A stretch of DNA of 28,174 nucleotides from contig CAWBHS010000040.1 of assembly GCA_963788655.1 (NCBI GenBank), positions 1 through 28,174 on the forward strand, read 5' to 3'. The notes under the pieces are model-generated. The model was given only the letters and a program-made list of their open reading frames with translations, was not told where the DNA came from and did not search any database. The position numbers and the translations under genes are program-made. Below, in pieces: positions 21,930 through 28,174 of this stretch; position 1 is the stretch's first letter, and the number at the start of each line of letters is the position of its first letter. Source of the stretch: an uncultured Verrucomicrobiae bacterium (GTDB taxonomy: Bacteria; Verrucomicrobiota; Verrucomicrobiia; Limisphaerales; JAFGQR01).

Positions 21930-22127
21930 AATCCTCGGGCAGTCAGCTTCGAAGCAAGGTTGATCGAACGCCAGAAAACTGTTTATGCCGCGTCATCCGG
22001 CACACCGGCACAGACTACCGCTTATGTCACCCTCACCGGTCAGTTGAAATCCCAGACCGATCCGGATGGGGTGATCACGCGTTACGCCCACAATGCGAAG
22101 GGTGAACTATTCGAGACGGCCATTGAT
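21930..22127 (+). pseudogene. RHS/YD-repeat fragment
   Basis: GQLKSQTDPDGVITRYAHNAKGEL resembles a YD repeat. No real start, and cut by the IS21 end at 22128. Confidence 0.6.
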
Positions 22128-22318
22128 TGTCAGCGGGCAGTCAAAACCGGCCAGGGATGGGCGAATGAAAACCAGCCACTTTGAGAGTGGGATTGCGCAC
22201 GGGGCGGCGAAGGCCGCACAGGTGCGCGATGAACCAACTCAACGTGAGCCTGCAACATTCCATCGCAACGCTGGCGGCCAATGGCTGGTCGGCCCGCAAG
22301 ATTGCCCGCCAGCTGGGC
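22128..22318 (+). mobile_element. istA: IS21-family left end with istA N-terminal fragment
   Basis: Begins TGTCAGCGG with internal repeats AAAACCGGCCA/AAAACCAGCCA. ATG 22229 MNQLNVSLQHSIATLAANGWSARKIARQLG (HTH), then breaks off. Confidence 0.75.
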
Positions 22319-22627
22319 GGTGCCCCGGGCACCTGTCCGGATAGGAGCTGGTGCCGGACGACATCTCCGGGCACACAAAGACGCGGCGACACCGGCCGGC
22401 AGCACTCACGCGCAAGACTCCGGGAAGACCCCGGAAAGGAAGGCTTGGAAGAAAATGACGTGAAGCAACCCGAAGTGGAAAAGGACGCCCGGAGTGGGTG
22501 GGGAGCACCACCGCTGGCGCGCGCGTCTTCGCTTCACTCCGTTGCGCTCCGCGCGATCAACCCACCGAAAATACTCAGCACCGAAAAACCTGGCGGCTTA
22601 ATCACGCCCCTTGACAACCCTCATAGG
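22319..22627 (+). mobile_element. probable right-end remnant of a second, different IS110-family element
   Basis: Ends CCCCTTGACAACCCTCATAGG (TTGACA just inside the end, as seen in IS110 right ends) and abuts a half attC. No recognisable transposase motif remains. Confidence 0.4.
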
Positions 22628-22648
22628 GGCTCCGGCGTCTTGTTAGGT
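22628..22648 (-). other. attC half site (R'' and L'' only)
   Basis: Minus strand ACCTAAC-AAGAC-GCCGGAGC overlapping the cassette stop codon, then interrupted. Confidence 0.7.
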
Positions 22649-22960
22649 GTGTTCACACTCATACTCTAAGAAGCCACCTCGGATAAAAAGTCTGACACTG
22701 CCTTCGTCTATAAACTCCAAAACACTGTGGCCGGACTCATGTTTTGTGAGCCTAATAGTATCTACGTCAAATGACGGAAAAAACCGCACCTCGATTGGAC
22801 TCGTGCACCTAATCACCAAATCGCGATAATAAGAAACGTCTCTGGTTCCAACGATCACGATCTGTTCCTTACCAAAGTCGTAGCTCTCCACAAAAAAGCC
22901 ATCGTGCAGAGTTGGAAGCAACTCATTAATCGTATCCAGATGTTCAAGCAGTGAGCGCAT
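22643..22960 (-). CDS. integron cassette gene, hypothetical (immunity-protein-like)
   Basis: 105 aa, lower GC. Cassette start GTTAGGTGTGT is complementary to its end ACACACCTAAC over 11 bp. Confidence 0.75.
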   Translation of the reverse strand: MRSLLEHLDTINELLPTLHDGFFVESYDFGKEQIVIVGTRDVSYYRDLVIRCTSPIEVRFFPSFDVDTIRLTKHESGHSVLEFIDEGSVRLFIRGGFLEYECEHT

Positions 22961-23158
22961 ACACACCTAACGAAAAAATATAGGTAATCCGAAGTTATTC
23001 ATCCGGGGACGAGCGGAGCCGCCTGGCGGAGCTCGGCGAAGGACCCGGTGAATAACTTCGTCGCGCCGGGAAATGTTCCGGCGCCCGGCAGGTTTCGGAT
23101 GGCTGACTGGATTCATTCTGCTATCCGTTTCCGCGACTGGTTTTCCCGCCCCGGCGGG

Positions 23159-23899
23159 GTGGCAGGGCCACTTCCCCGTCGCGCTGCGCGCAGCGCCTTG
23201 GGCCGCCGGACCTTCCGGCCCGGCCCGCCGGGCGGGACTTGACCCTCTCAACGACTCCTCAAGAGGGCGTCTCTCATTCACTGTTGAGGACTCTTCTATA
23301 TTGCCGTCGCCCGGGTCAAGTCTGCGGGCAAGGCGGGGCCTTGACCCAAACGCGCTCCGCGCGAAGCGCTGTGGGAAGCGGGCACTGCCCGCCCTGGTCA
23401 TCGGCCTGGATCGCTCCGATCGCAAGGCCGACCTGCACTTCATTGAAACCGCCTCCGGCAAACAATGGTCCCAGACCATCGAGACCAAACCCGAGGCGCT
23501 CCACGACTGGCTGGCCCAGCTGCGCCAGCAGTATCCCGAGGCGAAGATCGGGCTGTGCGTCGAGCAACCCGCCGGGGCGATCATCGCCTTCGTCGAGGCC
23601 TACGCCTGGATCACGATCCACGCGATCAACGAGGCGAAGCCTCGACCCAATGCGCGCGGCCAGCGCGTGGGCGCAGGCACTGCCTGCCCAAGGACGCCCG
23701 TTACCTGGCCGAACTCCTTTGGCATCATTGGGCCGAGCTGCCGGTCTGGTTGCCGGAGGATTCGGCCACCCGCAAACTCCAGCTGTTGGTGGTCCACCGC
23801 CGGGCCGTCGTCGATGAACGCACCGGCCTCACCAACAAGGCAAAGCCTTGACCCAATGCGCTTCGCGCGCAGCGCGTGTGGGAGGCAGGCACTGCCTGC
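23159..23899 (+). repeat. four dispersed copies of a ~60-nt triple-hairpin motif (23159-23219, 23330-23392, 23631-23687, 23837-23899)
   Basis: Copies 2-4 share (A/G)AGGC-NNN-GCCT(T/C)-GACCCAA..GCGC..AGCGC..TGGG..GC(A/G)GGC-ACT-GCC(T/C)GC. Copy 1 has the same fold with diverged sequence. All four are absent from IS copy 2. Confidence 0.8.
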
Positions 23900-24669
23900 T
23901 GGCGGCCGCTGGCCACTGACTTCCTCCTCAAGTGGCCGACTTGCAGAAGGTGATGAAGGTCAAAACCGCGACGCTGATGCAGTTCTATTATGTGCATGGC
24001 TCGCGCAGTGAAAAGGCGATCGAGCGCCGGCTGAGCCTGATCGAACAGGCCGTGCCCTTGACCGATGAACCGGCGTTGCTGGAGAGCTTCACCCTGCGCG
24101 TGCAGCTCCTCTGCCGGGAACTCAAGCTGGTGGTCAACGCGATCAAGGACTACGACCGGCAGATCACCGAAGCCTTCGACGCGCATCCCGACCGCGAGAT
24201 CTTCCGTAATCTCCCCGGGGCCGGACCGACCTTCGCGCCCCGCCTGCTGGCCAGCCTGGGTTCGCAGCGGGAGCGTTTTGCCGATGCGGCGGCGTTGCAG
24301 CATTACAGCGGCATCGCGCCGGTGACCAAACAGAGCGGCGGCAAACGCCACGTGCATCGGCGCTACCTGTGCCCGAAATTCCTGCGCCAGAGTTTTCATG
24401 AGTACGCCAAGGAATCGATCCTCCACAGCCGCTGGGCGGCGGCGTTCTATCAGCAGCAACGGGAGAAGGGTTGTCCGCATCACACGGCGGTGCGGGCGCT
24501 GGCCTTCAAATGGCAACGGATCATCTTCCGCCTGTGGCAGGACAAACAAGTCTACCGCGAGGAAACCTACGAAGCCGCGCTGAAGAAAACCAGGAGCCCG
24601 CTGGTGGCCCGGCTGGAACATATCGAAGTGGGCAAAAGCCCCTTCAAAAACCCGGCGAAGAAAAACTGA
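23393..24669 (+). pseudogene. IS110 transposase pseudogene
   Basis: LVIGLDRSD...CVEQ and QHYSGIAPVTKQSG retained. The start codon and the AKDDAKD catalytic segment are lost to replaced segments, with frameshifts. Confidence 0.88.
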
Positions 24670-24787
24670 AAAACCACTTGTCGGATGCCCTCAGAGGGGA
24701 ACTCAGCGACGCCGGGCCAAGCGTATCGGACATGAAACCAAAGCGTAATCCCGGCGTTCGCTGTAGTGATTTTGTTCGGCTTCCATC

Positions 24788-25015
24788 TCATTGCCGCTCT
24801 TGAATGAACTCCTCCGCCGTAAGTCCGATGTCGCGAGCGATTTGTCGCAGGAGAATTGGGGAAACGTCTCGACCGGGATGATTCGGAACGGTGGTTCCCC
24901 GGCCGTCAGCGTGTCTGTACTGCAAATGCGAACCACGCTGCCGCACAAGCAGAAACCCCAAGGCCTCGAGCCGACGGCAGACCTCGCGTGGTTTTAGAAC
25001 TGGCAGCTTGCCCAT
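24788..25015 (-). CDS. hicA: HicA-family toxin (mRNA interferase)
   Basis: LEALGF..VRQRGSH..YRHADGRGTTVPNH...LLRQI, 75 aa. Confidence 0.93.
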   Translation of the reverse strand: MGKLPVLKPREVCRRLEALGFLLVRQRGSHLQYRHADGRGTTVPNHPGRDVSPILLRQIARDIGLTAEEFIQERQ

Positions 25016-25018
25016 ACA

Positions 25019-25228
25019 CTAGCCCACCTGAATCATTTGTGTGCCAACAAAATCCGCTTCCAAGGACGGCTCACCGTCCTCAAGGAGCATGCTGATTACC
25101 TCCTCCAGATTCTCCTTCAATTCATCAAGCGAAGCCCCCTGGGAATGTGCTCCAGCAAACCCGGGAACGTAGCCGACATAAAGGCCGGTGTCGGCGCATT
25201 TCTCAACAATCGCTGTAAACAATTTCAT
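25019..25228 (-). CDS. hicB: HicB-family antitoxin (short form, no DNA-binding domain)
   Basis: YVGYVPGFAGAHSQGASLDELKENLEEVISMLLE, 69 aa, 3 nt upstream of hicA. Confidence 0.92.
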   Translation of the reverse strand: MKLFTAIVEKCADTGLYVGYVPGFAGAHSQGASLDELKENLEEVISMLLEDGEPSLEADFVGTQMIQVG

Positions 25229-25285: not shown

Positions 25286-25344
25286 GCCGAACGTCGAGGT
25301 CAGGCGCGGCGCGCAGCGTCGTTGCCTGCACCGATTTGTTCGAC
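25286..25344 (-). other. intact 59-bp attC site
   Basis: Minus strand GTCGAAC-AAATC-GGTGCAGG...CCTGACC-TCGAC-GTTCGGC, with one extra base in L''. Confidence 0.9.
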
Positions 25345-26033: not shown

Positions 26034-26350
26034 TCATGTTTCGGCGATGTGAAAAAACAAACACTTCGTCGTCAATCAGTGCCTGCTCGAAATACTGCCT
26101 GCCCTCCGACTTTCCCTGATAGGTCTCCTCAGATACCAAGATACTGTCTTCGAGGGAAAGAGCCACCCATCCATGATCCTCGATCCATCCTTTTGCGATC
26201 AGGTAAGCATTCTTCCTCGTCTGAATTCTTGATCCAGTATCCCACGGACGCGCCGCCATACTCCTTCTCGTGTGCGAAAGTCGGGTCTTGAGCAGCATCG
26301 ATTATCAGATACTGCATCGGGATACGCTCGTGCTCGGAGTATTCAGGCAT
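26034..26350 (-). CDS. cassette gene, acidic hypothetical protein (~105 aa, apparent frameshifts near 26210 and 26055)
   Basis: MPEYSEH...GGASVGYWIKNSDEE joins NAYLIAKGWIEDHGW...YFEQALIDDEVFVF. The ATG lies inside the R' box GTTATGC, which matches its R'' GCATAAC. Confidence 0.65.
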
Positions 26351-26358
26351 AACGACAA

Positions 26359-26700
26359 TATAGGTAATCCGAAGTTATTCATCCGGGGACGAGCGGAGCC
26401 GCCTGGCGGAGCTCGGCGAAGGACCCGGTGAATAACTTCGTCGCGCCGGGAAATCCCGGCGCCCGGCAGGTTTCGGATGGCTGACTGGATTCATTCTGCT
26501 ATCCGTTTCCGCGACTGGTTTTCCCGCCCCGGCGGGGTGGCAGGTCTGCTAACGTTCCGTCGCGCTCGCACGACTTTGAGCTATTATGGACCGGCCCGCC
26601 GGGCGGGACTTGACCCCCTTAACGACTCCTCAAGAGGGCGTCTCTCAATCTGATGACGACTCTTCTATATTGCCGTCGCCCGGGTCAAGTCTGCGGGCAA
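26359..26700 (+). ncRNA. putative IS110 bridge RNA (target-binding loop ~26543-26592, donor-binding loop 26607-26691)
   Basis: Two stems, each enclosing an internal loop and an inner hairpin. Loop segments AGAGGG and CTATATT match the IS ends; CTAACGTT and TGAGCT match attC. Exact RNA ends unknown. Confidence 0.75.
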
Positions 26701-26735
26701 GGCCACCCAACTAAAACACTCAAACCCCAGCGTTC

Positions 26736-28039
26736 ATGAAAGCCACTTGTCCCTACGACCTGGTCATCGGCCTGGATCGGTCCGATCGCAAGGCCGACCT
26801 GCACTTCATCGACACCCACACCGGCCAACAATGGTCCCAGACCATCGAGACCAAACCCGAGGCGCTCCACGACTGGCTGGCCCAGCTGCGCCAGCAGTAT
26901 CCCGAGGCGAAGATCGGGCTGTGCGTCGAGCAACCCGCCGGGGCGATCCTCGCCTTCGTCGAGGCCTACGCCTGGATCACGATCCACGCGATCAATCCGC
27001 TGACGCTCCAGAAATATCGCGAGGCCTTTGTCACTTCGCGCGCCAAGGACGATGCCAAGGACGCCCGTTACCTGGCCGAACTCCTTTGGCATCATTGGGC
27101 CGAACTGCCGGTCTGGTTGCCGGAGGATTCGGCCACGCGCAAACTCCAGCTGTTGGTGGTCCACCGCCGGGCCGTCGTCGATGAACGCACCGGCCTCACC
27201 AACCGCCTGATCGCCCTGTTAAAACAGTACTTCCCGCAGGCGCTGTGAACTCTGCGGCGAGGACTCTCTGGCGGCCGCTGGCCACCGACTTCCTCCTCAA
27301 GTGGCCGACTCTGCAAAAGGTGTCCAAGGTCAAAACCGCGACGCTGATGCAGTTCTATTATGTGCATGGCTCGCGCAGTGAAAAGGCGATCGAGCGACGG
27401 CTGAGCCTGATCGAACAGGCCGTGCCCTTGACCGATGAACCGGCGTTGCTGGAGAGCTTCACCTTGCGCGTGCAGCTCATCTGCCGGGAACTCAAGCTGG
27501 TGGTCAACGCGATCAAGGAATACGACCGGCAGATCACCGAAGCCTTCGACGCGCATCCCGACCGCGAGATCTTCCGTAATCTCCCCGGGGCCGGACCGAC
27601 CTTCGCGCCCCGCCTGCTGGCCAGCCTGGGTTCGCAGCGGGAGCGTTTTGCCGATGCGGCGGCGTTGCAGCATTACAGCGGCATCGCGCCGGTGACCAAA
27701 CAGAGCGGCGGCAAGCGCCACGTGCATCGGCGCTACCTGTGCCCGAAATTCCTGCGCCAGAGTTTTCATGAGTACGCCAAGGAATCGATCCTCCACAGCC
27801 GCTGGGCGGCGGCGTTCTATCAGCAGCAACGGGAGAAGGGTTGTCCGCATCACACGGCGGTGCGGGCGCTGGCCTTCAAATGGCAACGGATCATCTTCCG
27901 CCTGTGGCAGGACAAACAAGTCTACCGCGAGGAAACCTACGAAGCCGCGCTGAAGAAAACCAGGAGCCCGCTGGTGGCCCGGCTGGAACAGATCGAAGTG
28001 GGCAAAAGCCCCTTCAAAAACCCGGCGAAGAAAAACTGA
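26736..28039 (+). CDS. IS110-family DEDD transposase/bridge recombinase (apparent indels at 27246-27266)
   Basis: IGLD, CVE and AKDDAKDA (D-E-D-D), LPGAGP, YSGIAPVTKQSG. Removing two bases restores QALELCGEDLWRPLA. Confidence 0.93.
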
Positions 28040-28174
28040 AAAACCACTTGTCGGATGCCCTCAGAGGGGAGGTATCCGGCGGCAAAAACCCAGATGCCTC
28101 GAAAGGAAAATGACTATGGCAAACCGAAACTCGACGATGATGCCGGGGCAGCGCAAGCCGGATTACCTCCAGCG

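Follow-up and report, generated by a model that had tools for sequence, protein, structure and literature searches.

Elements of the IS110 family can be guided to their insertion sites by RNAs that they encode themselves; experiments have demonstrated this for IS621 and ISEc21 (passages of PMC11208160 and PMC11187229). In these passages, the bridge RNA of IS621 (Durrant et al., 2024) and the seekRNA of ISEc21 (Siddiquee et al., 2024) are encoded upstream of the transposase gene and have a 5′ stem-loop and two internal loops. Left guides read in the same sense as the DNA, and right guides are its complement; the target loop varies and the donor loop is conserved. Both reprogrammable RNA-guided IS110 elements and insertion sequences that target integron attC sites are already known, the latter from the IS1111 branch only. 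The IS1111-attC elements ISPa21, ISPst6, ISKpn4 and ISPa25 insert site-specifically into attC, antisense to the cassettes, and part of PMC3001079 places ISPa21 and ISPst6 near the 5′ end of the site; according to a section of PMC11187229, elements of this group are guided by an element-encoded RNA. Group IIC-attC introns are also mobile elements that home to attC in antisense orientation (PMC3001079, in part), but these retroelements, which carry a ribozyme and a reverse transcriptase, work by an unrelated mechanism. ISEsa2 and its relatives ISCfr13, ISEch11 and ISEch13 are IS110-family elements with an upstream leader, and ISEsa2 has the named transposase closest to the one studied here. In our literature search, which did not extend to subscription papers or bioRxiv supplements, we met no IS110-type lineage with an upstream leader that is described as targeting attC. 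We consider it highly probable that the element described below represents such a lineage, with a leader that would encode a bridge RNA whose target loop is aimed at attC.

The window, i.e., the whole stretch of DNA that was analyzed, is contig C40 (28,174 bp) of an 8.96-Mb metagenome-assembled genome in 115 contigs, the relatives of which are Verrucomicrobiota. From about 22.6 kb to the right contig end, it holds small minus-strand genes set apart by imperfect palindromes with AAC and GTT boundaries. This region is an integron cassette array, with no integrase on the contig. One cassette, lying between two attC sites, carries a HicA toxin/HicB antitoxin pair (24788-25228, minus strand), and a free attC of 59 bp (25286-25344, plus strand, GCCGAAC to GTTCGAC) separates it from the next cassette. 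The inner edge of the array (21960-22669) contains an RHS-repeat fragment and a small helix-turn-helix ORF. Elsewhere in the genome, three integron integrase genes score above the TIGR02249 cut-off, and an internal stop interrupts two of these (G000 C59:66134-68710 and C49:288364-289293); on C59, more integrase-like pieces adjoin the first of these.

Two copies of an IS110-family element, both on the plus strand and 91% alike overall, interrupt the array. The two copies and the free attC at 25286 of the original prediction are indeed present, and every sequence string quoted there was found in the window at its position. Copy B (26358-28067, 1710 bp) runs from ATATAGG to CCTCAGAGG, its ends having been set from six copies in its own genome and about 25 relatives, and its insertion point from uninterrupted attC sites. 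It has a 379-nt leader upstream of the transposase gene and 28 nt downstream. The gene encodes an N-terminal DEDD domain (26736-27248, plus strand; PF01548, E 1.4e-27) that ends in a premature TGA (27246-27248) and a C-terminal part (27245-28039, plus strand; PF02371, E 2.8e-15) reached by a net 2-nt frame shift. In a nearly identical contig from a different sample, one base is missing at 27264, and the frameshifts in the assembly may in part be assembly errors. Among the contigs of four DNA runs, no empty site was bridged and no piece spanned the first frameshift. Copy A (22978-24697) lies between CCTAAC-GAAAAA and the GGAACTCAGCG of another attC, whose far end is GTTCGGC at 24774-24780. Four of its stretches have been overwritten, namely the target loop, which is destroyed, the beginning of the gene and two internal parts. 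Each of these stretches (23163-23222, 23335-23398, 23630-23692 and 23836-23902) is about 60 nt long and has given way to GC-rich sequence of almost the same length that contains two small palindromes. Three of the four replacements are alike, and blastn-short (E <= 1e-3) found no other occurrence of them in the genome. Both copies in the window are relics, B with a stop, a frameshift and a drifted target loop, and A with four overwritten patches. The first ~188 nt of their leaders (22977-23166 and 26357-26544) are 100% identical save a small indel, and beyond them the copies are 94-99% alike, which suggests a recent gene conversion of the left end. Contigs C27, C48, C49 and C59 carry four more copies with about 70% identity, of which only the C59 copy has an intact gene (440 aa, P0001).

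With both transposase domains in copy B, an intact 440-aa homologue, ends (ATATAG and CCTCAGAGG) that are not inverted repeats and no target duplication at the insertion sites (see below), the element has the features of the IS110 family, and the upstream 379-nt leader together with the length of the transposase assigns it to the IS110 rather than the IS1111 group. P0001 is 38% identical to the ISEsa2 transposase over 403 aa (E 6e-101). BLASTP against IS4321, the IS1111-family reference from plasmid R751, gave nothing significant, the only alignment being a 20-residue stretch with E 0.028. In a tblastn search of 72,556 plasmids with P0001 (E <= 1e-5), 1313 records were matched, and IS4321/IS5075 was absent among the 60 matches listed, though it is present in at least 5000 records. 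In a quick maximum-likelihood tree of 31 rows, which left out the frameshifted C48 copy, L055 and partial or broken genes and had no IS1111-attC member among its rows, the 13 attC-flanked rows formed one clade (SH-aLRT 100), L034 being scored as attC-flanked from its right flank alone. This clade is nested in a larger one of 24 rows (100) that also contains ISEsa2, an element from a Leptolyngbya plasmid and nine sister elements of the same order; IS116, ISMav6, ISEc20 and ISEc21 fall outside it, with IS4321 set as the outgroup. As the group was defined by its flanks before the tree was viewed, its monophyly is descriptive. The element belongs to an ISEsa2-related subgroup of IS110 found mainly in Verrucomicrobiota genomes. 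Some members of the clade were found in bins labelled Competibacteraceae (L016), Acidoferrum (L020/L022) and Akkermansia muciniphila (L026); such labels reflect either transfer across phyla or binning errors.

If the element were simply a member of the described IS1111-attC group, nothing about it would be new. Such membership would account for the shared kind of target and the shared antisense orientation (PMC3001079, in part), but we find it scarcely credible. IS1111-type transposases have 330-350 aa according to a passage of PMC11187229, compared with 440 aa here; the IS1111-attC elements belong to another subfamily and have a downstream leader and subterminal inverted repeats, a combination that the present element does not show; and, as will be seen, the insertion point of the clade lies between L′ and R′, at the 3′ end of attC, and not near the 5′ end, the position reported for IS1111-attC elements (PMC3001079, in part). 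In the source data of Siddiquee et al. (part of PMC11187229), ISEsa2 is listed in the IS110 family, and the published matrix gives it 16.3% identity to ISPst6, ISKpn4 and ISPa21. The 38% identity to ISEsa2 and the lack of significant similarity to IS4321 thus place the element outside the known IS1111-attC group, and the original prediction of a lineage with an upstream non-coding region, apart from the IS1111 type, was borne out on these grounds. Its label "IS621-type" is loose: phmmer found no match for P0001 among solved structures, IS621 included, at E <= 0.01, and the nearest named element is ISEsa2. The targeting of attC was probably acquired independently of the IS1111-attC group.

Comparison with relatives indicates that the leader most probably codes for a bridge (seek) RNA. 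With a hidden Markov model of the leader core, this region was recovered at 24 distinct loci of the window's own genome and of relatives, 22 of which were aligned. RNAalifold predicted for these 22 leaders a long basal stem around an internal loop, capped by a GUCG/CGAC hairpin, followed by a second stem-loop with a second internal loop. Of the 835 cells at the 38 pairs of this alignment, 95.6% hold standard pairs, compared with 27-51% when the 3′ partners were slid by 1-3 columns, and 12 pairs showed compensatory changes on both sides, compared with 1-5 after sliding. None of 500 shuffles reached any of the observed fold measures; kinship among the sequences inflates these shuffle counts, while the slid controls retain relatedness. 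Ten of the 12 compensatory pairs lie in helices 1-4, which form the target-binding stem-loop (26521-26607, plus strand), where a basal stem and an apical hairpin (26559-26574) enclose the internal loop. The donor-binding stem-loop (26607-26691, plus strand) has a basal stem of GACTTGACCC (26607-26616) and GGGTCAAGTC (26682-26691), an inner CGAC/GTCG stem and an apical hairpin, in which pair 151/170 changes from CG to UA in five sequences; a predicted GAGGG/CUCUU pairing within the donor loop showed no covariation. Further upstream, a 5′ stem-loop (CGAAGTTATTCA to TGAATAACTTCG, 26370-26440, plus strand) is kept in all relatives and sister lineages and is the counterpart of the 5′ stem-loop that part of PMC11208160 describes in published bridge RNAs. 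The leader of copy B thus has the layout of a bridge RNA, with a 5′ hairpin and two stem-loops with internal loops, at about twice the length of the IS621 and ISEc21 leaders; that of ISEsa2 has the same layout and is shorter (~225 nt). Folded alone, the copy B leader was unexceptional (z -1.62). Searches of Rfam gave nothing at the gathering score over the whole window and nothing at E <= 1 over 26300-26780, and a scan of 26300-26800 for promoters and terminators found no sites of either kind. Among the sequencing runs listed for the stretch, none was an RNA run.

The two sides of the donor loop correspond to the two ends of the element. On its 5′ side, the left donor guide TCCTCAAGAGGGC (26627-26639, plus strand) contains CCTCAAGAGGG (26628-26638), which has the same sense as the right end CCTCAGAGG (28059-28067). 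On its 3′ side, the right donor guide TCTTCTATATTGCC (26661-26674, plus strand) is reverse-complementary to the left end ATATAG; within it, CTATATT (26665-26671), the counterpart on the opposite strand of AATATAG at 26357-26363 of the left end, is nearly invariant in the alignment. The correspondence extends to the sister lineages, whose right ends read CTCAG and then ATG, AAC, GTA, GTG, AAG or GGC, and in which the left donor guide changes along with the final 3-4 nt of that end (GAGG, GATG, GAAC, GGTA, GGTG, GAAG and GGGC). Where the sister left ends are TTATAG or GTATAG, the donor loop has the matching change in every lineage. ISEsa2, a member of the same well-supported clade, has homologous ends (ATATAG on the left and CTTGTCG.A..CTCAG on the right) and donor guides that match them. 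At two loci (L018 and L035), the first 19-60 nt of the left end are tandemly duplicated (ATAT.GGT.ATCCGAAGTT repeated).

The clade's target, as read from its flanks, is the R′-spacer/L′ end of integron attC sites (the slash here and below marks the insertion point), with the elements in antisense orientation relative to the cassettes. In the left flank of copy B (26347-26357, plus strand), GCATAAC, the complement of an attC R′ box (GTTATGC on the cassette strand), precedes a 4-nt spacer, GACA. In its right flank (28068-28174, plus strand), an L′ arm, GGAGGTATCCGGC, pairs with GCCGGATTACCTCC (stem score 21), and the contig end cuts the attC. Across the clade, 23 of 25 left junctions have an AAC, usually within GCCTAAC, 4-7 nt ahead of the element, the 25 being 24 found by pattern after removal of the internal duplicate in L035, plus L036; it is missing from L068 and L036, and also from one short metagenome contig, X1. 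The 28 right flanks start an imperfect inverted repeat, with a mean stem score of 19.4 compared with 12.3 +/- 2.2 for shuffled flanks, and the 3′ arm typically has one or two extra bases; in 16 of the 28, GTT follows within 22 nt of the 3′ arm. This set includes a few doubtful pattern hits and omits four C27-type copies, three of which, read by eye, end in GTTCGGC or GTTAGCC. Integron integrase genes lie ~6 kb (C59) and ~10 kb (C49) from IS copies, and their orientation fixes the cassette strand: on both contigs the IS has the antisense orientation and lies, in the cassette sense, at the 3′ end of attC, between L′ arm and R′ box. The HicBA cassette of the window gives the same reading. The sites combine an RYYYAAC...GTTRRRY frame, an imperfect palindrome with extra-helical bases, cassette arrays and, for the C59 and C49 copies, nearby integrases.

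Uninterrupted sites were sought in metagenomes with a loose-pattern scan, which gave 60 hits, mostly due to chance, of which two passed a crude stem and GTT filter; sites were chosen from them by eye. Those found (L080, L081/L082 on one contig, L094 and L111) read CCTAACGACC, then A or C, then TGAGCTCA, and end in GTTAGGC or GTTACAC, while the exact 19-nt predicted target had no hits in the metagenome collection. Judged by these sites, insertion occurs after the 5-nt spacer and before TGAGCTCA, and the element has its ends at ATATAG and CCTCAGAGR. Uninterrupted sites have ACGACC, A or C, and then TGAGCTCA, occupied ones ACGACCA, the IS and then TGAGCTCA, so that no target duplication is seen. 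The claim that the flanks are the R′-spacer-L′ part of attC, with the element antisense, is thus upheld by the left-junction AAC, the integrase orientation and the uninterrupted sites. The target as first written, CTAACGTT-N-AGCTCA, was too compressed: uninterrupted and occupied sites alike have CTAACG and 4 nt before the junction and TG and AGCTCA after it, so that 6 nt, not 3, separate CTAACG from AGCTCA.

The target loop in turn resembles these flanks. The left target guide of copy B, TGCTAACGTTCC (26547-26558, plus strand; family consensus TGCTAACGACCA), contains CTAACGTT (26549-26556) and has the sense of the left flank CTAACGACCA; in sister lineages it changes with the flank. The right target guide, TTTGAGCTATTATG (26575-26588, plus strand), contains TGAGCT (26577-26582), and its reverse complement, ending in AGCTCA, matches the right flank TGAGCTCA. 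In consensus, the left flank is GCCTAACGACC(C)A before the junction and the right flank TGAGCTCA after it, and the right guide is TTTGAGCTT(T)ATC, the reverse complement of which ends in AAGCTCAAA. Over six guide bases in 18 clade elements, the right guide matched its own right flank at 101 of 108 positions, compared with a permutation mean of 92.4 (7 of 10,000 permutations reached 101). All three variant guides (AGGTCA in L032, AGCGCA in L038 and AAGTGA in L036) stand beside the exact variant flank (6/6 each). On the left side, a junction-anchored 7-mer count gave 63 compared with 57.0, with 124 of 10,000 permutations as high and one flank wrongly taken, and this anchored test is weak; the distal left-guide position (CTAAC or CGAAC) follows the target in two of seven G-bearing elements, by our own reading. 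A longest-common-substring test over whole leaders was too noisy and was redone as a blind score of guide against flank in a fixed 115-nt window, from which L036 and L038 are absent since the end pattern missed both. In this score, which covered 17 elements including 10 non-attC sisters, own flanks averaged 13.6, the flanks of other target classes averaged 9.1 (sd 1.2, n = 230), and an element's own flank scored best in 14 of 17 rows. The covariation of guides and targets that had been put forward as a check was therefore found.

It might be argued that attC is found through the protein, by way of its folded hairpin or the integrase-binding boxes, and that the likeness between loop and flank is a by-product or serves another purpose. 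The sites are structured, group IIC-attC introns and IS1111-attC elements also home to attC (PMC3001079, in part), and the guide matches are imperfect at some positions. However, changes in the guide track changes in the flank within the clade, including all three variant guides, and ten relatives outside it (nine sister elements and ISEsa2) have unrelated flanks and carry correspondingly different loops that match them; examples are AACCCTT and TCTGGGCT (L039), TGCGAC and TCTCTGCG (L042), and TCCAAACCGT and GGCTTAA (L043). ISEsa2 itself, in the one plasmid copy that was read, is flanked by CCTGAGCGAC/GTGAAGCGG, a target that by this reading is not attC, and has another target loop. RNA guidance is, moreover, established by experiment for IS621 and ISEc21 in this same family. 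Recognition by protein therefore seems very improbable to us as an explanation for the choice of site, and guidance by the target loop remains our preferred reading. The architecture of the leader, the agreement of donor guides with the ends and that of target guides with the flanks all stand as originally proposed, given the fold of 22 relatives and the guide matches. The fold, the guide/end and guide/flank matches, the covariation, the attC targets and the phylogenetic position are results of sequence comparison, and from them we infer that the leader RNA would be made, bound by the transposase and used to direct recombination; the RNAs of IS621 and ISEc21 are known as guides from experiments, while the present one is predicted.

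In the proposed mechanism, the donor-binding loop would pair with the joined ends of the element (CCTCAGAGG/ATATAG), and the target-binding loop with both halves of CTAACGACCA/TGAGCTCA, which comprises the R′ box, the 5-nt spacer and the start of the L′ arm of one attC class, read on the strand opposite the cassette genes. Insertion of the circular element by the DEDD transposase would then take place between the spacer and the L′ arm, with no visible target duplication, and would separate the R′ crossover point from the remaining attC.

The guides of copy B fit their own site poorly, at about 5/8 positions on the left and 3/6 on the right. The counts of the original prediction, 11/14 for the free attC and 8/14 for the insertion site of the second copy, are reproducible in its own register, and it had concluded that the element tolerates many mismatches. 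This conclusion is not supported: copy B has a broken gene, its target loop reads ACGTTCC where the family consensus is ACGACCA, and its left flank, AACGACA, is nearer to the consensus than its own guide is. Decay of the dead copy after insertion, or mobilization in trans by the RNA of another copy, would explain the misfit equally well, and we think it rather probable that one of these, and not mismatch tolerance, is the cause. Contigs of near relatives from four other samples have AACGATCA...TGAGCT at the place of the copy B target loop, and intact relatives occupy well-matched sites, e.g., L015 (7/7) and L031. On the other hand, the apparently intact elements c59, L030 and L050 are also in imperfect sites, so that some mismatch tolerance in the clade is likely. 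Taken as a whole, the original interpretation is partly supported: the observation was real and the core of the interpretation right.

If the clade is guided by such an RNA, integron sites would have been captured by guide RNAs a second time and independently, here at the other end of attC, and the clade would differ from IS621 and ISEc21 in having a structured integron site as its target. With its sister lineages it would also provide a natural set of reprogrammed guides, and it could serve as a marker of Verrucomicrobiota cassette arrays and as a test case for the rule of a shared core dinucleotide. IS621 has a CT core dinucleotide (passages of PMC11208160), unlike the junctions here, which show no visible shared core: the junction dinucleotides differ, being CA/AT on the left and GG/TG on the right, with GT, AT, GG and AT at the guide positions. 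A bridge RNA might conceivably direct recombination without the identical core of IS621, between a CA/TG target and a GG/AT donor, and the insertions might also act as a reversible lock on cassettes, ideas that we put forward as speculative and rather unlikely. If true, core-less recombination would mean a different strand-exchange geometry or a built-in tolerance of wobble pairs, and cutting R′ off from attC would reversibly lock cassette excision and shuffling in verrucomicrobial integrons.

Two further observations concern the surroundings of the elements. In one genome, the right flanks of two copies (L029, G338:C14; L067, G338:C79) are identical over more than 140 nt and their left flanks differ, which could be due to recombination between copies, segmental duplication or an effect of assembly. 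A motif, GCCTGTGTGAAAAC, closes the attC sites of L015 and L030 in the GTTRRRY position and also flanks ISEsa2 on an Enterobacter plasmid (L058 2060-2100 and 2225-2245); it may be the end of another mobile element.
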